A DNA stretch of 48,444 nucleotides. Source: a virus. The translations under genes were made by a program, and so were the position numbers. Shown here in pieces: positions 4,723-48,036 of this stretch. The notes under the pieces are model-generated. The model was given only the letters and a program-made list of their open reading frames with translations. It made no database searches and had not been told where the DNA came from. Position 1 is the stretch's first letter. Each line of letters opens with the position of its first letter. The stretch is taken from IMG/VR virus record IMGVR_UViG_3300045988_154943, positions 1-48,444 of that record. One strand, 5' to 3'.

Positions 4723-5317
4723 AATACCTCCATATATATCCGTACGCTGTATTACAATGTTTTCTTTTTTTGCAACAACCAGTGATATTCCCACGTTTTT
4801 TAAAACCCAAAACTCTACATATCTCCGCAGAACTATTCCAAGTTTTAATAAAATTGCCATCTAAATCATATTGATTAATCTTTTTGCACCTTGAACCATA
4901 ATTATTATTATAAGCAACAGTACACCATTCTAAATTTACCACAGTGTTGTCTGTTTTAATTTCATTTTTATGATTAATACAGGGATAATTATTTGGATTT
5001 GGTATAAAGGCAGTTGCTACCAAATAATGACCTCTACTAGTTATCAAAGTTCCATTTAATGACAAACCCATTTTTACATATCCATCTTTATCAAAACTAC
5101 ATTTAAGTATCTTTTCATCAACATTTTGTTTTCTAATATACCTGCAATATTTATTTGCTGCTTCATATTTTATTTCTCTCTTTAACGACATAACTCTACC
5201 GTAATTAGATATTTGATATATTCCCTCAAATCCAAGTATGTCTTTCCATATTTCATTCTTTAATGGAGTTAAATCCAACCATCTTTCACTATTTGGTTCA
5301 ACTTGTTCAAATTCCAT
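4712..5317 (-). CDS. free-standing HNH homing endonuclease with NUMOD4 motif
   Basis: GFEGIYQISNYGRVMS (NUMOD4), INHKNEIKTDNTVVNLEWCTVAYNNN (HNH); C-terminal basic DNA-binding tail. Confidence 0.85.
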   Translation of the reverse strand: MEFEQVEPNSERWLDLTPLKNEIWKDILGFEGIYQISNYGRVMSLKREIKYEAANKYCRYIRKQNVDEKILKCSFDKDGYVKMGLSLNGTLITSRGHYLVATAFIPNPNNYPCINHKNEIKTDNTVVNLEWCTVAYNNNYGSRCKKINQYDLDGNFIKTWNSSAEICRVLGFKKRGNITGCCKKRKHCNTAYGYIWRYCEL

Positions 5318-6379: not shown

Positions 6380-7215
6380 TTGTACTCTATCTCCTTTTCT
6401 TTCATAAATTCTTTTAATTCTCTTAGTTTAGTTCTAGTAGCCTTAACTGTGAAAGTTATTTCAAGTTCTTCCTCTTCAACTACTTCAACTGGTTTAATAA
6501 TCTCTTCAACTTTCTCCACTACTTTTTCTTCTTCCTTAACAACTTCTTCAACTTGTTCAAGTTTTTTCTTTAAGGCTTCTTTCTCTTTGTTTCTGTTAAC
6601 GATAGTTAGTCTAGCATTAACATAATCAAAACCATTCTTTTTGTATTCAAGAAGTATATCTTCTTTAAACTCCTCAGAAGCAATGCACATCATATCGTCA
6701 CTAATCTTTTTGCAGAATTTAAGTATTACTTCTTTAAGACTTTTTTCTGTGTTTGTTAAGTTAATCTTGATAGGTACTTGGTCTATGTTAGTTATTATTT
6801 CTTCGATATGATAGAACTCTCTATATTGGTCTAAAAACTCAATTAAGTTATTTCTCTTTTCTTGAATTTGTTCCATCTCAATGTCTTTAACTTTTGTATC
6901 TAAAGTATCAATGCTATTATCAAGTAACCCTTTAATTTTTTTGTTATAATAATCTTCAAACTCTTCGTAAGGCTTATTAATTTCTTTTTTAATTTCTTTT
7001 CGTTTGTTTTCAAAACCAGTTTTCATTGCTCTTAGCATTTGAACATTCTTTTTAACTTCTTGTTTATTTTCTTCTGTACATTCTATTAAGTCAATGTCTT
7101 TAGTCATGTTAGTAATAATTTTACTTGCCACATCAAGTTGAGAAAATATTTCAGGCAATTGCTTAACTACTACTAAATCGTTAATATTAATATTATTTTC
7201 ATTCTCTTTCATCAT
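6376..7215 (-). CDS. acidic coiled-coil protein (possible DUF1351-like recombination-associated protein)
   Basis: 279 aa, glutamate-rich C-terminus; position upstream of RecT as in many Firmicute phages. Confidence 0.4.
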   Translation of the reverse strand: MMKENENNININDLVVVKQLPEIFSQLDVASKIITNMTKDIDLIECTEENKQEVKKNVQMLRAMKTGFENKRKEIKKEINKPYEEFEDYYNKKIKGLLDNSIDTLDTKVKDIEMEQIQEKRNNLIEFLDQYREFYHIEEIITNIDQVPIKINLTNTEKSLKEVILKFCKKISDDMMCIASEEFKEDILLEYKKNGFDYVNARLTIVNRNKEKEALKKKLEQVEEVVKEEEKVVEKVEEIIKPVEVVEEEELEITFTVKATRTKLRELKEFMKEKEIEYK

Positions 7216-7235: not shown

Positions 7236-7264
7236 ATTATATAATTACTTATTACACTTGTCAA
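7236..7264 (-). promoter_or_regulatory. consensus sigma-A-type promoter (TTGACA-17-TATAAT) for the recombination operon
   Basis: Minus strand TTGACAagtgtaataagtaattaTATAAT, about 14 nt upstream of the GAGGAGG SD of the 7215 gene. Confidence 0.6.
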
Positions 7265-8672: not shown

Positions 8673-9305
8673 CTATTCTCCAAAATATGGGTCATCTGTA
8701 ACATCAATGTATACTGGTGTTTCTCTTTTAGGTGTATTAGTTTTCTTTTCTTTTCTTGCCCAAGTTAGAATAGTTGCATAATGGTCTTTGTATTTTACCC
8801 CCTTGCTAGCAATGTACGCACTTAATGTTTCAATGCGTTCATCTACATCATAAAATTTGTCTTTTAATTTTTGGTATTGTTCATCAGTTAAAAACACGTT
8901 TTCAAACTCTCCAAATTTTTTCTTTTCTTTAGATATATCTTTAGATATATCTTTCTTTTGTTCTTTATTATTTATTATATTATTAATACAACTTTGTTGC
9001 ATACCCCCATGCAACTTTGTTGCATAGTATGCAACAAACTTCACCCCATTAATATAGTTCTCTTTTTTCCCAATTAGGTCTTTTTCGACAAGAGATTTTA
9101 AATTTTTCATAACCCCATATTTAGTAGAATTAGTCCAATTGGCTAAATATTGTAAACTACCATTATACTCGTGATTATTTATTTGACTAAAACCATAGAT
9201 TATAGCATATATGATTAATTCGTTCCCTTTAAGATTTAGTTCATTTACCATAAAACCTTGAATACAAACGTAATTCTCATTTGCTAAAGTTGTTCTTTCA
9301 ACCAT
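8673..9305 (-). CDS. phage replisome organiser / replication initiator (DnaD-like, conserved phage C-terminal domain)
   Basis: C-terminal KYKDHYATILTWARKEKK motif of the phage replication-protein C-terminus; internal iteron and palindrome cluster. Confidence 0.55.
   Translation of the reverse strand: MVERTTLANENYVCIQGFMVNELNLKGNELIIYAIIYGFSQINNHEYNGSLQYLANWTNSTKYGVMKNLKSLVEKDLIGKKENYINGVKFVAYYATKLHGGMQQSCINNIINNKEQKKDISKDISKEKKKFGEFENVFLTDEQYQKLKDKFYDVDERIETLSAYIASKGVKYKDHYATILTWARKEKKTNTPKRETPVYIDVTDDPYFGE
8926..9040. repeat. candidate origin of replication: 12-bp tandem repeat plus two adjacent palindromes sharing the GTTGCAT/ATGCAAC core
   Basis: ctttagatatat x2 (8926-8951); GTTGCATacccccATGCAAC (8997-9014) and GTTGCATAgTATGCAAC (9019-9036) inside the replisome organiser gene. 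Confidence 0.45.
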
Positions 9306-9635: not shown

Positions 9636-10430
9636 TTAATTTTCACTTTTCAAAATATAATCTATGATTTTTTCATATCTTTTTATTTTGGCTTGCATAT
9701 CTTCATATTGTTCTCTCTTAATAGAAATAAAATCCATAAATGAATTGTTGGGAATTGTTTTTGAAACTGAAATTGGTTCTTCCTCAACTAATTTTAAATC
9801 TTCCTCTGTATACAAATCATTTTGTTCGTCAACATTAGAACTTTCCATTTCAGGTTTTGCTTCAACTATACATTCTTTTGGAATTTCAAAACTGCTATGT
9901 TTACTTTCTTCAATTGGTTCGCTACATGGCATTAATGAGCCTGCTTGCGTAACTACTCCGAAACCAGATGGAGTAGTATAGTCAATATTTTCTTCTACTT
10001 CTGTTTTTACTTTCTTATTAAAATCATTTGTGAAGAATTTGTTAAGTTTGTATAGTGTCAAGAATGTTAGACTTTCATATGCACCATTTTCAATACACGA
10101 AATAACACTTTGTGCTATTCCTACCTCATTTGCTAATTCTCTTTGACTTTCAAGTCCAAATTCTTCTCTCATTTTTTTCAAGTCAATGTTTTTAAGCCAA
10201 TTTAATAATTCTATTTTTTTTATCTTTTTCTCATTTTCCGACATATTTACAAATTTCAAATATTCTTCTAAAGTATCTCCACTAATATTTCTTTCCCCAT
10301 TTTCTAATTCTTTTATTGTTTCTTCACTTACGTTTAATAAACTCGCAAGTTCTTTTATGCTAAATGCACTCTTTTTATTTTTCTTTTTATAAAAATTCAT
10401 ATTTCTTCTCTCACTTTCCTTTATTATCAA
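9636..10430 (-). CDS. transcriptional regulator with two tandem XRE-family HTH domains and an acidic C-terminal extension
   Basis: SIKELASLLNVSEETIKELENGERNISGDTLEEY and QRELANEVGIAQSVISCIENGAYESLTFLTLYKL match the HTH_XRE pattern. Confidence 0.8.
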   Translation of the reverse strand: MIIKESERRNMNFYKKKNKKSAFSIKELASLLNVSEETIKELENGERNISGDTLEEYLKFVNMSENEKKIKKIELLNWLKNIDLKKMREEFGLESQRELANEVGIAQSVISCIENGAYESLTFLTLYKLNKFFTNDFNKKVKTEVEENIDYTTPSGFGVVTQAGSLMPCSEPIEESKHSSFEIPKECIVEAKPEMESSNVDEQNDLYTEEDLKLVEEEPISVSKTIPNNSFMDFISIKREQYEDMQAKIKRYEKIIDYILKSEN

Positions 10431-14516: not shown

Positions 14517-14729
14517 AAAAATTCCTCCATTCTAAAATAAAAAAGATGTGTATAAGTCTAGTTGCGTTATTGTCACTTGTATATCTTTACTTATTTCACA
14601 TCAATTATATCATAAAATGTATTAAATTCAAAATTGGAGTACCATACCCGAATTGCACGAGTGTCTATTTGATTTGCAGTCAAATCGGCTTACTTCTTGC
14701 CTAATGGTACATATTAGGGAAGTTATTCC

Positions 14730-15543: not shown

Positions 15544-15600
15544 AAAATCTTATCCTTTCATGTACATTATATTATACTATTGTTTTTTTGTCAAATTGTG

Positions 15601-28515: not shown

Positions 28516-28701
28516 AATATCATCTCCTTTTCACTACAGTAATTTTACGGTTTACCAACCTTGAATTGAGATTTATTTATATCTACATTGATTACGCTCA
28601 ATGTTAAGCACTTATTTGGCACAGGTTCTAGGTTATGCTCCCAGTTCTTTGGTTTTGGAGACCAATGTTTTTCTGATTAAACTAAACCCATAGGTAAGGG
28701 C

Positions 28702-33303: not shown

Positions 33304-34300
33304 TTTGAAACAAGGTTTGTTTCTATAAAAAAAATGAAAAACTAGGAGCATAACCAATTGTACACTCCTTGATAAATTGATTTAGGTATTCCTCACACTA
33401 ATAGAACACAACCAAATTTTCTCAGCCAATAGGAAGTAAAAGTCCTCGTAGGGGGCGACCCTATGTCCTCTTTTACTTTTGGATAACTTTTGCCGTGGGG
33501 CAAAATACCTATAGTAAATCTCTCTTACTCGCTTTCACACACGCTAGGAAATTCTATATTATTTGCGTACCTGCAAACCATAATTAGCATTCTGTCATTT
33601 TCGGATGTAGATTTGTGCTACTCGTACCAGTTTCTAGTGTTATACTCCTGTCGCCAGGTATCAACTACACATTGGTTTATTGGTTTTCCTGCCTAGCCTT
33701 TATGCACCATACATAATAGCATATTCGCAGTGTACTCAGTATATGCTTGTACATACCTTTTCCTGATTACCAACCACTAGTCCTGTGCTTTAAATTCTCT
33801 TATGTTCTACTACTATTATCTCTTTCCACACTTTGTGTGTCTCAACAATAATATTACTATTATCGTACACATAATCCCTCAAAAAATCTCTCTTCTAAGT
33901 AATATGAACGAGATAACATCCTTACCACATTGTGTTGTAGTCTTTCATAAGGTTCTAAATCAACTTGTCAAGGAGCATTCCCTACGACCATAGATAGGGA
34001 ATATACTCTATGTTGAATGTTAATTGTAAGTGCTTACGACATTTTAATAAGCACCATAGAATAATAATAAAGTGTGGATTTGCGCCAACATTTTCTATCT
34101 ACTATATCGAATTGCCTCACTATTTGGCTTCTCTATTATTACTCTATGCTACCTATTAGTAGCACATTATTACTTAAATAATGCCCTAATGGACATCATT
34201 GAGACAATGATATGTATAGTAGAAAGAAGAACCATTGTCTCAATGATGTCCATTAGGTGTCAAATAAGAATACTATGTAAGTTATACCCTTTCGAGTACA
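33300..34300 (-). ncRNA. candidate large (~1 kb) structured non-coding RNA
   Basis: No credible ORF on either strand in a gene-dense genome; visibly GC-enriched relative to flanks; many hairpins including GNRA tetraloops (CCTGgcgaCAGG, tactcGAAAgggta), TTTTGCCgtggGGCAAAA, nested AGTAAAAG...CTTTTACT stem, 24-bp perfect inverted repeat; own promoter at 34307-34335 and terminator at 33272-33303. Confidence 0.5.
34186..34256. repeat. 24-25-bp perfect inverted repeat (long hairpin) with 23-nt loop
   Basis: CTAATGGACATCATTGAGACAATG (34186-34209) and its exact reverse complement (34233-34256). Confidence 0.9.
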
Positions 34301-34306
34301 TATTAA

Positions 34307-34335
34307 GTATATCACAATACTTTTTTATTGTCAAT
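34307..34335 (-). promoter_or_regulatory. promoter TTGACA-17-TATACT driving the ORF-free region
   Basis: Minus strand TTGACAataaaaaagtattgtgaTATACT. Confidence 0.45.
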
Positions 34336-40544: not shown

Positions 40545-41051
40545 TTACTCGCCATATTCTTCTCTTGGGTTACTCTCTTCTTGATTTTCTAACTCCTTTA
40601 TTTCCTCTTTCTGATGGTCTATGATATTTAGCAAATCTTCTATTATTAGGTTCTTTTCTTTAGCAAAATCGTACTCTGTCAATGTAACATTTGCTACTCT
40701 TTCCTTTAATTTACTCTTTTTGTTAAATGTTATCCCCATATTTCTTATGATATAGTCCGTAATAACGTCCAAATTAGGCTCTAATTGGTTATACACATCT
40801 ACTTTTTCATATTTATTTAGGTCTTTCTCATATAAATCCCCTACAGATATTTCCCATTCTCTCTTACCCCAATATCTATACATGAACTCACCCCTTAAGC
40901 ATTCTTTAAACCCCATTCTATCCTTGATTTTACCCTTTTTAACCATCTCTTGTAGCCTTTTTAATGTGTCCTCATGTAACACGTTAGTATTATTCATTTC
41001 CTTTGCATTAAAATCATAATACATTGCATAATATTTAATCTCTTTTCTCAT
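40545..41051 (-). CDS. hypothetical protein, first gene of the operon
   Basis: 168 aa, GGGAGG SD, immediately downstream of a consensus promoter. Confidence 0.5.
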   Translation of the reverse strand: MRKEIKYYAMYYDFNAKEMNNTNVLHEDTLKRLQEMVKKGKIKDRMGFKECLRGEFMYRYWGKREWEISVGDLYEKDLNKYEKVDVYNQLEPNLDVITDYIIRNMGITFNKKSKLKERVANVTLTEYDFAKEKNLIIEDLLNIIDHQKEEIKELENQEESNPREEYGE

Positions 41052-41076
41052 TATGCCTCCCTTTAATTATGTCTCT

Positions 41077-41105
41077 ATTATACCTTTTATTATTTATAAT
41101 GTCAA
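41077..41105 (-). promoter_or_regulatory. perfect consensus promoter TTGACA-17-TATAAT for the 41.0-34.4 kb operon
   Basis: Minus strand TTGACAttataaataataaaaggTATAAT, then GGGAGG SD and ATG. Confidence 0.7.
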
Positions 41106-41121
41106 TACATTTATAAACCAC

Positions 41122-41529
41122 AAAAAAACAACCTTTTATGGTTGCTTCAACAAAAACGAAAACCTTTGTATCTTTAATAGATACTGCACTAATGATATAA
41201 ACTAGTATTACCTTTAATGTCGGCTACAGAATAATTTCATAGTCTAGGGTATATATCATCAGTACACTACCTATTTAGATAATGTGAACAACGAATTAAA
41301 AAGATAACATCTAATTAATTCCGAGTAGTCATCCTCGCCTTTACTTCTACTAATCTATTTAGCATAACCAAATGCTTCAAAGTAAATAGTGCCTTATAGA
41401 CACCATATCAAGTAAATATATTACTAGCACCCTAAACTACACTAGGCATTGGTTCTTTAAGACTTTATATACTTACTCAATATGCTGCCTATAGCAGCAC
41501 ACAATTATTTTTTTATAACCTCTCGGTTA
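41122..41529 (-). ncRNA. candidate ~400-nt phage-encoded non-coding RNA between two consensus promoters
   Basis: Upstream perfect promoter (41537-41565), downstream terminator CAACCataaaaGGTTGttttttt (41122-41146); longest minus-strand ORFs are under 20 codons; hairpins GTATCTattaaAGATAC and GCTGCtatagGCAGC. Confidence 0.45.
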
Positions 41530-41536
41530 CATACTC

Positions 41537-41565
41537 TATTATATTACTTCTTTCTTGCTTTGTCA
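41537..41565 (-). promoter_or_regulatory. perfect consensus promoter TTGACA-17-TATAAT
   Basis: Minus strand TTGACAaagcaagaaagaagtaaTATAAT. Confidence 0.65.
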
Positions 41566-41699
41566 ATACGTGATTTCCAAAGTATAAATTTTGGTCGGAG
41601 TTATGACAAGGGGTAACTCAAGGAAAACGCGAACATATAGGTGGTGTGGGGCGTGGTGTTTACTTCCAATATTGATATAATATTGAACCTTAAAAGTGT

Positions 41700-41990
41700 A
41701 AATAAAATGTAAAGTATTTATAGCAAATATTTGTATGAGTAATATCTAATTTAACAAGTGTAACAAATACGCAAATAAAAAAGAATAATGATATAAATAA
41801 TAATACTATAATAATACAATAAACACACTATATATATTATACTATATAAGCGTATGAGTACATAAAAGAGAGTATATAAAAGTAGTATATACACATTTTA
41901 AGGGTATAAATAAGCGTTTTTTGCTTTATATAGTAATAAATAAGTACTATAATACAATAACACTATATAATACCATATAAACCACTTTTA
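41700..41990. repeat. AT-rich block with imperfect ~30-bp direct repeats (tactataat(aa)tacaataa(a)cac(ac)tatata), duplicated short motifs, and a C-rich island
   Basis: Copies at about 41803-41835 and 41944-41975; gtatgagta x2; ataagcgt x2; unusual G-run ggtggtgtggggcgtggtg at 41638-41656. Confidence 0.5.
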
Positions 41991-41993
41991 AGC

Positions 41994-42026
41994 ATAAAAA
42001 AAGACCATTTTACTAGTCTTTTTCTT
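41994..42026 (-). terminator. rho-independent terminator for the 42240..42013 gene
   Basis: AAAGACcattttactaGTCTTT stem-loop followed by a T-run on the minus strand; includes the stop codon. Confidence 0.55.
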
Positions 42027-42240
42027 TAAATAGTACTAAGTTTTTGTTTTTAAGTATTTTAATATCTTCTAAACTTGTTGTTATATTTGCGTATATTTGC
42101 GATTTCTTGTAATAGTCTTTTAAGTCATTTAATGCTTGCTTTAGGTTAGTATATTCTTTTAAGTATCTAATATCATTTTTTAAAGTGTCGTACTTGTAGA
42201 GTGTGTAAAAGTGTTTAGTTTTCATATGTTTAACCCTCAA
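42013..42240 (-). CDS. hypothetical protein
   Basis: 75-aa ORF with terminator. Confidence 0.45.
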   Translation of the reverse strand: MRVKHMKTKHFYTLYKYDTLKNDIRYLKEYTNLKQALNDLKDYYKKSQIYANITTSLEDIKILKNKNLVLFKEKD

Positions 42241-42756: not shown

Positions 42757-43153
42757 TTTTTTATTACCTCATTTCATTTTTTTATTTTTTCATATTCACA
42801 AGTGTTCAATACACTTTTTTAATTAATTACAACTTTTTACAATTGTATTTTTTAAAACTAAAAACTTTTTAAATTCTAACAAACTTTTATAGTCATTTTC
42901 TTTTAGTCCTGTTAGTTTACAATAAATTTTATAGTTTTTGAAGTTAAACTCTTCCATGCTTTTCACCTCTTTTCTACTTAAAACTTTGTGTCTCTTGCTT
43001 TAAGCACTTTAATTGTATCACACTTTAAATACATTTGCAATACTTTTTTTGTAATTTTTTTATTTTCTTTTTTTGTTGTCCTTATTATATATATAATTTT
43101 TATTCTATTTTTCTAAAAAAGTTTTCTATTTTTTCCAATTTTAGAAAATGTTA

Positions 43154-43162
43154 TGATATAAT
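43154..43162 (+). promoter_or_regulatory. extended -10 promoter element TGaTATAAT for the plus-strand cluster
   Basis: Perfect TGnTATAAT about 270 nt upstream of the first plus-strand gene; -35 weak. Confidence 0.4.
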
Positions 43163-43180
43163 GTAATCACTTAACAAAAA

Positions 43181-43196
43181 GAAGTCCAAAGACTTC
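43181..43196. promoter_or_regulatory. operator-like palindrome GAAGTCcaaaGACTTC
   Basis: Perfect 6-bp half-sites; the same half-site recurs at 43340-43349 and 43387-43396. Confidence 0.45.
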
Positions 43197-43339
43197 CAAA
43201 AAGTTAAGTAAATAGTTATTTTACAACATAGTTTACACACTTTACACTAACTTTACATTAAATTGTCATTTTGTTGATATTGTGTGAAATTTTGGGGTTT
43301 TGGGAGTTGTAAAATATCTAGAAATATGTAGAGATTTTT

Positions 43340-43396
43340 GGACTTCTAGTTGTAGTTCTTTTAGAAAAATTTGTGTCTTTTGTTTTCTAGAAGTCC
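43340..43396. promoter_or_regulatory. pair of inverted 10-bp sites GGACTTCTAG ... CTAGAAGTCC flanking a 37-nt spacer just upstream of the first plus-strand gene
   Basis: Exact reverse complements at 43340-43349 and 43387-43396. Confidence 0.45.
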
Positions 43397-43429
43397 TTAA
43401 GTCTTAAAAAAAAAGGAAAGGAAGATATT

Positions 43430-43699
43430 ATGAAAAAAGTCCATTATGAAGATTTGGGTGTCTACTTTGGCACTAAAGCAAACGAATACTTCAATACTGA
43501 TATGTTTGAAATGATAACAATTAACTATGCTGAAGATATTAAAGAAGATAACTATAATGAAGAAACAGGACTATCAAAATGTCATATAGAATTGACATAC
43601 CCTAAAGCAAATAAACCACTATTATTAATATACTTCTACACATGCTACATATATGATAGTGAAGATAACTTAATAGGCATTGAATTTTATATAGACTAG
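43430..43699 (+). CDS. hypothetical protein (DUF2283-like beta-rich small protein?)
   Basis: 89 aa, AGGAAAGGAAG SD; C-terminal YFYTCYIYDSEDNLIGIEF. Confidence 0.45.
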   Translation: MKKVHYEDLGVYFGTKANEYFNTDMFEMITINYAEDIKEDNYNEETGLSKCHIELTYPKANKPLLLIYFYTCYIYDSEDNLIGIEFYID

Positions 43700-48007: not shown

Positions 48008-48036
48008 ATTATATCATTTTTCAGTTTAGTTGTCAA
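48008..48036 (-). promoter_or_regulatory. perfect consensus promoter TTGACA-17-(TG)aTATAAT with extended -10
   Basis: Minus strand TTGACAactaaactgaaaaatgaTATAAT upstream of the 47981 gene. Confidence 0.65.

Follow-up and report, generated by a model that had tools for sequence, protein, structure and literature searches.

ROOL RNAs are large, ornate molecules carried by phages and prophages of low-GC Gram-positive bacteria from the gut and rumen; they lie in non-coding islands that also hold tRNA genes, and kissing loops are central to their structure (PMC12286853; PMC5737381). GOLLD RNAs comprise a conserved and a variable part, and tRNA genes are sometimes embedded in the variable linker (PMC12286853). 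Both RNAs assemble into cages made of RNA alone, in which kissing loops hold the parts together; the covariation that was first taken to reflect tertiary contacts in these RNAs proved to be intermolecular (PMC12286853).

We analysed a phage sequence of 48,444 nt (IMG/VR record IMGVR_UViG_3300045988_154943, referred to as the window) that encodes a non-coding RNA of about 410 nt. Like ROOL, this RNA is large and ornate and is borne by a phage of low-GC Gram-positives from the gut or rumen, and its relatives occur in tRNA-linked non-coding islands, display an apparent kissing-loop theme and are in some cases fused to the 5′ end of ROOL itself; a phage context near tRNA genes is a ROOL trait that the window and the family share. 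However, ROOL folds as a single closed structure of ~580 nt that contains pseudoknots and multistem junctions, whereas the window RNA is a string of exchangeable modules that has no sequence or structure match with ROOL, and the ROOL model (RF03087) finds nothing in positions 40900-42100 at E ≤ 10. The likeness to GOLLD lies in the phage-borne location near tRNA islands and in tRNA genes that are embedded in two relatives of the window RNA, but GOLLD is unlike the window RNA in size and architecture, and the GOLLD model, which covers the conserved 3′ half of that RNA, has no match in the same region (E ≤ 10), in 7 related loci (E ≤ 0.5) or in 30 further related stretches (gathering score).

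Two further RNAs invite comparison as well. The pRNA of phage phi29 has a three-way junction, two loops of covarying complementarity, which pair between molecules to form a ring, and a strong promoter, and it is found in small protein-primed podoviruses, where it docks on the connector. The window RNA is likewise a phage RNA with two hairpin loops whose mutual complementarity covaries, although the loop pairing of the window RNA may be intramolecular. The window phage is not phi29-like, being ~48 kb long and encoding an SPP1-type portal, a large terminase subunit and an integrase, and the region has no Rfam match to a phi29-type pRNA. In the purine-riboswitch type of three-way junction, hairpins of similar length stand side by side, pair through their loops and pack on a third helix, and in topological terms the repeated unit of the window RNA may be seen as a circular permutation of this fold. 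The unit differs in that it has neither a ligand-binding junction (there are 0-2 junction nucleotides) nor an expression platform, and in having a long third helix with variable cargo.

Two other identities were considered and rejected. The sequence CUGAUGA recalls the hammerhead ribozyme, in which CUGAUGA and GAAA are unpaired core strands that connect three helices next to a UH cleavage site, but in the window RNA it sits in a Watson-Crick helix (helix H, below), where its partner is UCAUUAG; relatives have CUAGUGA, CUGAAUA and other sequences in its place, with compensating changes in the partner strand. Because the motif is both base-paired and variable, the hammerhead reading was abandoned; the region also has no GAAA strand and no Rfam hammerhead match. 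Neither ARAGORN nor the Rfam tRNA model finds a cloverleaf in the region, which speaks against a tRNA or tRNA-like gene.

Anatomy of the RNA gene

In addition to the genes named above, the phage encodes RecT and DnaB; its large terminase subunit has a T7-like nuclease domain and its integrase is a tyrosine integrase. An earlier note on this DNA stated that no CI-type repressor is recognizable. This is not supported, as the product of positions 9636-10430 is a Cro/CI-type protein with a double HTH, which matches HTH_3 (E = 3e-17) and, weakly, Phage_CI_repr. Only two tRNA genes are present in the window, at 14635-14710 and 28617-28691 (ARAGORN, Rfam).

All elements of the RNA gene lie on the minus strand. 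Promoter P1 (41538-41566) consists of TTGACA at 41566-41561, a 17-nt spacer and TATAAT at 41543-41538, matches the consensus at 12 of 12 positions and has a predicted start site near 41531. Promoter P2 (41077-41105), which lies outside the RNA, matches equally well (12/12), with TTGACA at 41105-41100 and TATAAT at 41082-41077, and both promoters are conserved in the sister contig L001. On the 3′ side of P2 are AAAGGGAGG and the ATG (41051) of a 168-aa ORF (41051-40545) that starts the downstream operon. The ~410 nt enclosed by P1 and P2 end in an intrinsic terminator recovered by a terminator scan at 41122-41148, in which GCAACC-AUAAAA-GGUUG (GAAGCAACC-AUAAAA-GGUUGUUUU) is followed by U7; many relatives end in the same way, in GCAACC..GGUUGUUUUUU. 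The earlier note had read the locus as a non-coding transcript of about 400 nt that runs from a minus-strand consensus promoter to a hairpin with a U-run, directly followed by a second perfect promoter and the start signals of the first operon gene, and on each of these sequence features our analysis agrees with it.

The longest sense-strand ORF between the promoters has 21 codons and a TTG start. A near-identical copy exists in only one (L016) of seven full-length relatives, and there is no ORF common to all seven, in particular no small ORF conserved by homology of the kind that the note had set against its own reading. The E-F core of the RNA (see below) holds a GAGG-AUG mini-ORF (MTTRN), which was discounted as coding solely on the spacing of its Shine-Dalgarno sequence, because GAGG abuts AUG. 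Searches of the neighbouring small ORFs against PHROGs and Pfam gave nothing informative, and no match was obtained between the upstream protein of relatives and the 133-aa ORF of the window.

Perfect TTGACA-N17-TATAAT sites occur five times in the window, always on the minus strand. When one mismatch is allowed there are 12 sites against 1.74 expected, a number reached by none of 100 shuffles; looser promoter-like matches show no enrichment (47 versus 51.7 expected). Overall, the evidence supports a non-coding RNA gene that is complete in itself, having both a consensus promoter and an intrinsic terminator, and that stands head-to-tail with the operon promoter behind it. An own promoter, an intrinsic terminator and the lack of a conserved ORF are also the features of a generic free-standing sRNA gene. 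The RNA gene, which is carried by a gut or rumen phage, is real, and from the sequence its promoter is predicted to be strong and its product stable.

Modular fold and covariation

The predicted fold of the 414-nt RNA has a free energy of −119.4 kcal/mol, compared with −86.8 ± 5.0 in shuffled sequences (z = −6.5). From 5′ to 3′ the modules are a 5′ hairpin, unit 1 (A-B-C), linker D, core E-F, unit 2 (Px-H-Py) and the terminator. All of them are recovered in an RNAalifold consensus of the seven full-length relatives, and all helices of the window RNA covary among relatives. The 5′-terminal hairpin S0 (41515-41530; GUAACC-GAGA-GGUUAU), placed by MFE fold prediction, is invariant in the sister contig, and type-I relatives have an equivalent 5′ hairpin with compensatory changes.

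Unit 1 begins with hairpin A (41484-41498; GCUGC-UAUAG-GCAGC), in whose outer stem four of five pairs covary on both sides, the remaining pair being an invariant G-C. It is followed by the long helix B (41405-41483), which has a 17-bp base (AUAUUGAGUAAGUAUAU/AUAUAUUUACUUGAUAU) and a variable apical part; across 47 constructs, 11 of 12 basal pairs show compensatory changes on both sides, and relatives have 26-148 nt between the 12-bp basal strands. Hairpin C (41388-41404; GGUGUC-UAUAA-GGCACU), the stem of which covaries, completes the unit, for which both-side changes are seen in 20 of 22 pairs. The loops of A and C are mutually complementary, and the C loop follows the A loop through three classes that switch together (UUAUAG:CUAUAA, AAUUAG:CUAAUU and CAAUAAG:CUUAUUG).

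Between the two units lie linker domain D (41339-41387), which in the RNAalifold consensus has an outer helix UUUACUU/AAGUAAA and an inner hairpin that differs in sequence among relatives while its pairing is kept, and the core E-F (41293-41338). The core, in which E is CGAG-GAUGACUA-CUCG and F is GAAUUAA..AGAU-GUU-AUCU..UUAAUUC, is near-invariant, and model R1 detects it in 20 of 161 related stretches. In the relative L167 the core has diverged but keeps the E stem by means of four compensatory pairs, together with the AUGAC loop.

Unit 2 is similar in sequence to unit 1, and its three helices covary as well. Because MAFFT failed to keep the units of some classes in register, pairs were counted in fixed-register constructs; these contain stems only, with the partner picked for best pairing. 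Hairpin Px (41265-41286; CAUUAUCU-AAAU-AGGUAGUG) shows both-side changes in five of eight pairs, with 95% of cells paired in 124 constructs. The long-range helix H (41187-41264; UACUGAUGAUAUA / UAUAUCAUUAGUG) encloses a variable insert of ~50 nt, shows both-side changes in nine of 13 pairs and contains a conserved G-U pair, and the structure is therefore assigned to the RNA (minus) strand. In hairpin Py (41168-41186; CAGUAUCU-AUUAA-AGAUAC) each of three stem pairs switches in 17-36 sequences (AU/GC, UA/CG and CG/UA). Both-side changes affect 17 of the 27 pairs of the whole Px-H-Py unit, and the cells that show them number 130 versus 35 in shuffles, with 0/500 shuffles reaching 130, a control that overstates significance because the sequences are related. 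The proportion of cells paired is 93.7%, as opposed to 28-56% when the partners are slid, and is in part a product of construction, since the best-pairing partner was chosen.

The Px and Py loops are complementary over a mean run of 6.8, compared with 5.46 for permuted partners (0/1000) and 4.2 for shuffled loops. A rod-like fold that competes with the hairpins would, if extended into the loops, explain this complementarity equally well. In that fold, which is favoured by single-sequence MFE prediction, the 3′ strand of Px pairs with the 5′ strand of Py in 85.9% of cells; this pairing shows no covariation beyond shuffles. The complementarity of the flanking loops suggests instead a compact three-way junction locked by loop-loop contact. 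The building block is a short hairpin, a long helix with a variable insert at its tip and a second short hairpin, and the two hairpin loops would kiss. Two such blocks are joined by linker D and the near-invariant E-F core, and the 5′ hairpin and terminator hairpin cap the ends.

Distribution of the family and its link to ROOL RNA

Units of the type hairpin-long helix-hairpin were found 218 times in 148 metagenomic phage or MAG stretches, and the number and order of modules differ from phage to phage. Within the window, a generic structural scan for units is non-specific, yielding 19 candidates versus 4-14 (mean ~9) in random sequence; only three units, which are related in sequence, were accepted. 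Among the 4227 families of Rfam 15, none matches positions 40900-42100 beyond noise at E ≤ 10. The Lysine riboswitch model scores 10.4 bits there (E = 9.3), which is at the level of noise. Apart from tRNAs, Rfam 15 likewise finds nothing in 7 related loci at E ≤ 0.5 or in 30 further related stretches at gathering score. A BLAST search of the region against 50,697 GenBank phage records returned no family match, and queries with 96-104-nt modules against the same phages gave none or chance matches only. The family is also undescribed in the literature that we searched; the large candidate lists of Fremin 2023 (PMC10690425) could contain fragments of it. The RNA family appears to be previously undescribed.

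The inserts at the helix tips are hypervariable. In helix H of relatives they range from 24 to 504 nt, and near-identical 18-19-mers common to many otherwise different phages flank variable inserts. The B and H inserts of the window RNA are ~50 nt long and have no feature recognizable by tRNA and Rfam scans. One relative carries a tRNA-Trp gene in H (L121) and another a tRNA-Arg gene in B (L105). The idea that tRNA cargo is the rule was dropped, as only two of 218 units carry one; 53 of the 218 (24%) have a same-strand tRNA within 500 nt. One structured insert is common to H helices (L007, L016, L017 and L020) and B helices (L115 and L200). The genes downstream of the RNA vary among relatives, many of which sit directly upstream of terminase genes.

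A link to ROOL is present in the window itself, where a ROOL RNA (RF03087) lies at 33367-33976 with a score of 155.1 bits against a gathering score of 99.1 bits. The third unit of the window is located 54 nt upstream of this ROOL, an arrangement conserved in the sister phage. Units abut ROOL in six of 11 related ROOL loci, this phage included; the gap between unit and ROOL is 5-7 nt in four loci (L108, L150, L213 and L230), and in L063 a single island holds tRNA, ROOL, unit, unit and core. The association is infrequent among units at large: Rfam scans of 37 related stretches, made before the ROOL-anchored search, place no ROOL near units, and of 136 Px-H-Py units only three have a ROOL behind them. 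As read from the sequences, the A′ loop (UAAUAG) of the ROOL-linked unit can form 6 bp with the Py loop (CUAUUA) of the window RNA, a match equal to any loop pair within a unit.

Possible functions of the RNA

We consider it probable, at roughly 0.6, that the locus encodes a stable, highly structured non-coding RNA of ~410 nt which belongs to a new modular family and acts in trans through its folded shape, within the ROOL/tRNA-island class. Instead of antisense pairing, the mechanism would be that of a scaffold or a decoy, with a second RNA or a factor of the host or the phage as the partner. The fusion of the same units to ROOL in this and other phages suggests a functional kinship with the ROOL, GOLLD and tRNA-island RNAs of phages. 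A decoy was among the roles proposed in the earlier note and is possible as a general idea.

The hypervariability of the inserts, set against the conservation of the helices that flank them, would also be expected if the units were processing cassettes in which a double-strand-specific RNase cuts B and H, like the processing stems of rRNA and tRNA operons, to free functional cargo such as tRNAs, tRNA-like pieces or small RNAs. The bona fide tRNA inserts of two relatives, the structured insert that H and B helices of different phages share and the same-strand tRNAs near 24% of units fit this scheme, which we nevertheless regard as unlikely: recognizable tRNAs are found in only 2/218 inserts, those of the window RNA are featureless, the 13-bp H helix is short for RNase III, and selection acts most strongly on the scaffold and on the complementarity between loops, which would be superfluous in a simple processing stem. 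That same complementarity could act between molecules, giving homo-oligomers or docking the RNA on the ROOL-fused unit as part or cargo of a nanocage. The precedent of the ROOL and GOLLD cages, with their kissing loops and intermolecular covariation (PMC12286853), the six ROOL loci with fused units and the 6-bp match between the A′ and Py loops speak for such assembly. We hold it to be quite improbable, as covariation is blind to the distinction between intra- and intermolecular pairing, AU-rich loops reach runs of about 4-5.5 by chance, most units have no ROOL nearby (0 in 37 stretches; 3/136 Px-H-Py units) and the hairpins beside one helix are similar in length, as a side-by-side contact within one molecule predicts. 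The more specific proposal that the unit is a docking or assembly module, loading or decorating the ROOL nanocage with variable cargo that includes tRNAs, is correspondingly doubtful.

The position of the terminator directly upstream of the operon raises the question of a cis-acting leader that controls its own terminator read-through by attenuation or processive antitermination, as in the Bacillus EAR element or HK022 put. Reading the sequence shows a GUUG tract immediately 5′ of the terminator that could compete for the GCAACC strand. In several relatives the RNA has a small HTH-like protein on one side and the small terminase subunit on the other, where leaders of late operons are typically found; because many relatives adjoin terminase genes on their upstream side, a leader role is possible in some phages. 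For the family we judge this very unlikely. The operon has its own perfect promoter, and since P2 follows the terminator, read-through is not required. Units also occur inside non-coding islands and fused to ROOL, the region matches no Rfam cis-regulatory family, and there is no conserved association with a single gene family. An antitermination or other cis element dedicated to the operon, as suggested in the earlier note, is unsupported because the folded architecture is kept across many phages whose downstream genes differ. The note's suggestion of an antisense or immunity RNA, which would pair with a transcript of this or a superinfecting phage and so set lysis-lysogeny or exclusion, gains something from the strong, constitutive-looking promoter in a temperate phage with an integrase and from a divergent intergenic region nearby (about 42800-43430). 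It does not find support in the sequence of the phage, where the longest stretches complementary to the RNA outside its own locus measure 12-13 nt (E ≥ 0.24), a chance level, and the same lack of extended complementarity and of any credible opposite-strand gene overlap in the window led us to reject RNAs of the P22 sar, P1 c4 and lambda oop type. What is conserved, moreover, is paired structure with compensatory changes and not a single-stranded seed, and the phage already has a Cro/CI-type HTH protein; we consider this role highly improbable. More remote still is an element acting as DNA, whose inverted repeats would be recombination, packaging or replication sites. The shared 18-19-mers around variable inserts do resemble cassette boundaries, but the conserved G-U pairs would turn into C-A mismatches if the opposite strand were the one that folds, compensatory changes maintain pairing on one strand, and orientation is constant, with a promoter upstream and a terminator downstream.

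The finding bears on the class of large structured phage RNAs that includes ROOL and GOLLD, which have recently been found to form RNA-only cages. The new family is abundant, apparently unreported and built from a simple repeated block that is easily engineered. It illustrates modular RNA evolution, with phages that carry differently shuffled units, linkers, cores and inserts and, in some cases, a genuine tRNA gene inside a unit. Because its promoter, its ends and its covariation-backed fold are well defined, the window RNA is ready for in vitro work and suited to in vitro transcription, probing and cryo-EM. The link to ROOL gives a handle on ROOL function, through the partners of the unit and through cargo loading or tethering. 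If the unit is indeed a docking module, the RNA would be the first known to serve a natural RNA cage as an accessory or adaptor, and its family a third class of self-assembling phage RNA.

Promoters, terminator and phage context

The window RNA is an autonomous non-coding gene. It begins downstream of P1, a perfect TTGACA-17-TATAAT promoter on the minus strand (41566-41538), and ends at a GC-containing hairpin with a U run, GCAACC-AUAAAA-GGUUG-U7 (41148-41122 (-); stem to U run, 41145-41122). A second perfect TTGACA-17-TATAAT promoter, P2 (41105-41077 (-)), follows, and after it come AAAGGGAGG and the ATG (41051) of a 168-aa ORF. Both bracketing promoters and the terminator are thus as the earlier note had described them. 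The longest sense-strand ORF between P1 and P2 has 21 codons and a TTG start, and a coding reading of the region was rejected. The folding energy of the 414-nt RNA is far below that of shuffled sequences (z = -6.5). The transcript is probably abundant and stable, given that its promoter matches the consensus and a hairpin caps either end.

Consensus promoters are overrepresented in this genome. TTGACA-N17-TATAAT sites include five perfect copies, all on the minus strand (7236-7264, 15566-15594, 41077-41105, 41538-41566 and 48008-48036), and 12 that deviate at one position or none (1.74 expected; 12 reached in none of 100 shuffles); looser promoter-like matches in the window occur at chance level. 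Its operons thus seem to be headed by promoters of the host sigma-A consensus type, on which the phage would depend. Upstream of P1, about 230 nt of non-coding sequence (41570-41800 (-)) is conserved with positions 1-230 of the sister contig L001, where two additional genes intervene before the RNA; within this stretch are a promoter-like sequence, TTTACA/TTGACA-17-TATATC, and a tract rich in C and poor in G (ACACCACGCCCCACACCACC).

The phage, of about 28% GC, is temperate and siphovirus-like. Read downwards, its minus strand carries the RNA between two sets of small ORFs, then a DNA methylase (37648-36911 (-)) and a complete ROOL RNA (RF03087; 33976-33367 (-), 155.1 bits, model positions 1-574). 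Then follow a weak small-terminase match, the large terminase subunit, an SPP1-type portal, tRNA-Trp(CCA) (28617-28691 (-)), head and tail genes, tRNA-Cys(GCA) (14635-14710 (-)), a CHAP lysin, a 264-aa protein with two Cro/CI-type HTH_3 domains (10430-9636 (-)), DnaB, RecT and a tyrosine integrase (1055-108 (-)). Both tRNA genes are single and lie inside the structural/late region with no units adjoining. As the double HTH_3 protein and the integrase are present, this is a temperate phage with a recognisable repressor-type regulator, contrary to the suggestion that it has none of the CI type. Exact-motif matches within genome bins suggest that the hosts are uncultured gut "Bacilli/Mollicutes/Bacillales".

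Modular fold and covariation

In the RNA sense, the transcript opens with the 5′ hairpin S0 (GUAACC-GAGA-GGUUAU, 41530-41515 (-)). Unit 1 consists of hairpin A (GCUGC-UAUAG-GCAGC, 41498-41484 (-)), helix B with a 17-bp base and a variable tip (41483-41405 (-)) and hairpin C (GGUGUC-UAUAA-GGCACU, 41404-41388 (-)). Linker D, an outer helix with an inner hairpin (41387-41339 (-)), leads to the core (within 41338-41293 (-)), in which hairpin E is CGAG-GAUGACUA-CUCG and hairpin F is GAAUUAA..AGAU-GUU-AUCU..UUAAUUC. Unit 2 comprises hairpin Px (CAUUAUCU-AAAU-AGGUAGUG, 41286-41265 (-)), helix H (UACUGAUGAUAUA / UAUAUCAUUAGUG flanking a ~50-nt insert, 41264-41187 (-)) and hairpin Py (CAGUAUCU-AUUAA-AGAUAC, 41186-41168 (-)). 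On reading the sequences, A is similar to Px and C to Py, and therefore the two units look like paralogues. RNAalifold, applied to seven full-length relatives with the same module order (409-479 nt), independently returned every module helix.

Covariation supports a modular fold of two apparently paralogous units and a conserved core. Among 124 distinct fixed-register Px-H-Py constructs, 93.7% of cells are paired, falling to 28-56% once the partners are slid; both sides change in 17 of 27 pairs, and 130 such cells compare with 35.4 in shuffles, none of these measures being reached in any of 500 shuffles. The Py stem switches between AU/GC (17 sequences), UA/CG (36) and CG/UA (29). For A-B-C (47 constructs), both sides change in 20 of 22 pairs, with 210 cells against 51; since these constructs were chosen by pairing, the compensatory changes alone, and not the percentage paired, count as evidence.

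The E-F core (model R1) is present in 20 of 161 related stretches. In the one divergent copy, from the related stretch L167 (41.9 bits), four compensatory pairs preserve the E stem (CGAG/CUCG to CCUC/GAGG), the inner F stem is preserved as well (AGAU/AUCU to AGUU/AACU), and the loop AUGAC is retained. This pattern suggests that the E loop is a recognition site. The invariant E-loop ACUACU (41321-41338 (-)) is also complementary to the Px 3′ strand GGUAGU (41265-41272) and resembles the Px 5′ strand, which could reflect alternative pairing or a trans contact.

Within each unit, the loop of one flanking hairpin is complementary to that of the other. Over 66 distinct loop-pair types, the mean contiguous complementary run between Px and Py loops is 6.8, against 5.46 for permuted partners and 4.2 for shuffled loops (6.8 reached in 0 of 1000 each), although the loops are AU-rich and the innermost CU/AG closing pairs add to the runs. 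Examples are UUAAUAG:CUAUUAA, UAGUAG:CUAUUA, UUUUAUAG:UUAUAAAA and UUUAGUUG:CAAUUAAG; A:C loops fall into three classes, UUAUAG:CUAUAA, AAUUAG:CUAAUU and CAAUAAG:CUUAUUG. The same Px/Py complementarity could extend a competing rod-like fold, which is sterically possible in that 85.9% of cells are able to pair. Its covariation is no greater than in shuffles, whereas the hairpin stems covary strongly, and for this reason hairpins joined by a kissing contact, within or between molecules, are favoured. Where the Py 5′ strand varies, it does so by transitions only, which also leave wobble pairing with the Px 3′ strand intact.

Relatives, inserts and fusion to ROOL

The units are widely distributed among uncultured phages of gut and rumen. 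When IMG/VR was scanned for exact words from three conserved blocks, a core 16-mer gave 12 true loci, a Py 19-mer 64 stretches and a Px/H 18-mer 110, and in total at least 218 units were located in at least 148 stretches. Both totals are minimum figures, since the scans relied on exact words alone and the patterns missed one variant inside the window. The sister contig L001/L008 (48,231 nt) has the same promoter and 5′ hairpin and a downstream protein 85% identical, with a shorter RNA (about 260 nt) that keeps some blocks and lacks others. Elsewhere the core lies before or after unit 2, D is swapped for other linkers, and units occur in tandem. In several relatives the RNA is flanked on one side by a small protein with a weak HTH at its C-terminus and on the other by the small terminase subunit (Terminase_2, E=8e-8); apart from this, the genes downstream vary.

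No member was found in 50,697 GenBank phage records. The Rfam 15 covariance-model search that the earlier note proposed gave no family match at E≤10 in the window region; seven related loci searched at E≤0.5 and a further 30 searched at gathering score likewise matched none. A hammerhead was rejected, its CUGAUGA being paired and variable, and the RNA is not a tRNA. The literature searched describes neither the motifs nor such a family; a 2023 catalogue of 8,495 short IMG/VR candidate RNAs could contain fragments. Although the family shares no homology with any known one, it belongs to an established kind, the ornate phage RNAs whose function is unknown. A further conserved non-coding sequence, AAGAAYUUUCUAUUUAUCUUGGCUAK..GCAAGCUUACGAACAAA, lies 3′ of the core or Py hairpin in three related stretches (L063, 5100-5160; L077, ~2090-2110; L117, after Py, oriented ~10960), with no Rfam family over it in the loci scanned.

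The 12-nt basal strands enclose 26-148 nt in B and 24-504 nt in H among relatives (55 and 54 nt in the window). Genuine tRNA genes form two of the inserts: L121 carries tRNA-Trp in its H helix, and L105 carries tRNA-Arg in its B helix. For 53 of the 218 units, a tRNA lies on the same strand no more than 500 nt away. One structured insert of about 130 nt (..UAUGGAGGCAUAGGAAA..GGUUACCNCNGAGGGUAAAAGGUUUUAUUAGUCGACUA..) occupies H in four phages (L007, L016, L017 and L020) and B in two (L115 and L200); cargo domains have therefore been exchanged between the unit kinds.

Fusion of the unit to ROOL is recurrent. The window ROOL, about 7 kb from the RNA and directly upstream of the putative small terminase gene, is preceded at 54 nt by a third unit, of A-B-C type (~34166-34029 (-); A loop UAAUAG, C loop UUAUUA). 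Farther 5′ lie a long perfect hairpin of ~25 bp (~34185-34257 (-)) and a near-consensus promoter, TTGACA-17-TATACT (34306-34334 (-)); unit and ROOL look co-transcribed. The sister phage L008 has the same arrangement (~6440-6550), with compensatory changes in B. A scan anchored on a ROOL motif, independent of the units, gave 19 stretches, five of them already fetched by unit probes, and Rfam confirmed ROOL in 10 of the 15 scanned. Units end 5-7 nt before ROOL in four unrelated phage contigs (L108, 1331-1356; L150, ~8929-9035; L213, ~6940-7168; L230, ~4760-5066), and stand 5′ of it at six of 11 distinct loci of this subtype, window and L008 included. In L063 (3678-5130), a single non-coding island of more than 1.7 kb begins with tRNA, ROOL, a Px-H-Py unit and ~300 nt of other RNA, and continues with an A-B-C-like unit, an E-F core and further conserved RNA.

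Possible roles of the units

Each unit would be a three-way junction locked by loop-loop contact, and the RNA probably acts in trans through its folded shape, sharing the biology of ROOL, GOLLD (another large phage RNA) and phage tRNA islands; this is the favoured reading. Of five rivals to it, a processing cassette that releases cargo is the most likely. Intermolecular assembly, or docking onto ROOL, ranks next; most units have no ROOL nearby in the related stretches scanned with Rfam and among 136 distinct Px-H-Py units checked for their next element. That element is a terminator-like hairpin in 52, SD plus ATG in 21, a core in six, another unit in six and ROOL in three. A cis leader is the third choice among the rivals.

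An antisense regulator, as the earlier note had envisaged, is less probable still, as complementarity to the rest of the phage does not exceed 13 nt. Least likely is an element acting as DNA, because H conserves a G-U pair and the element always faces the same way between promoter and terminator, which places the structure in RNA. For the study of ROOL biology, the unit family provides a direct way in by experiment.
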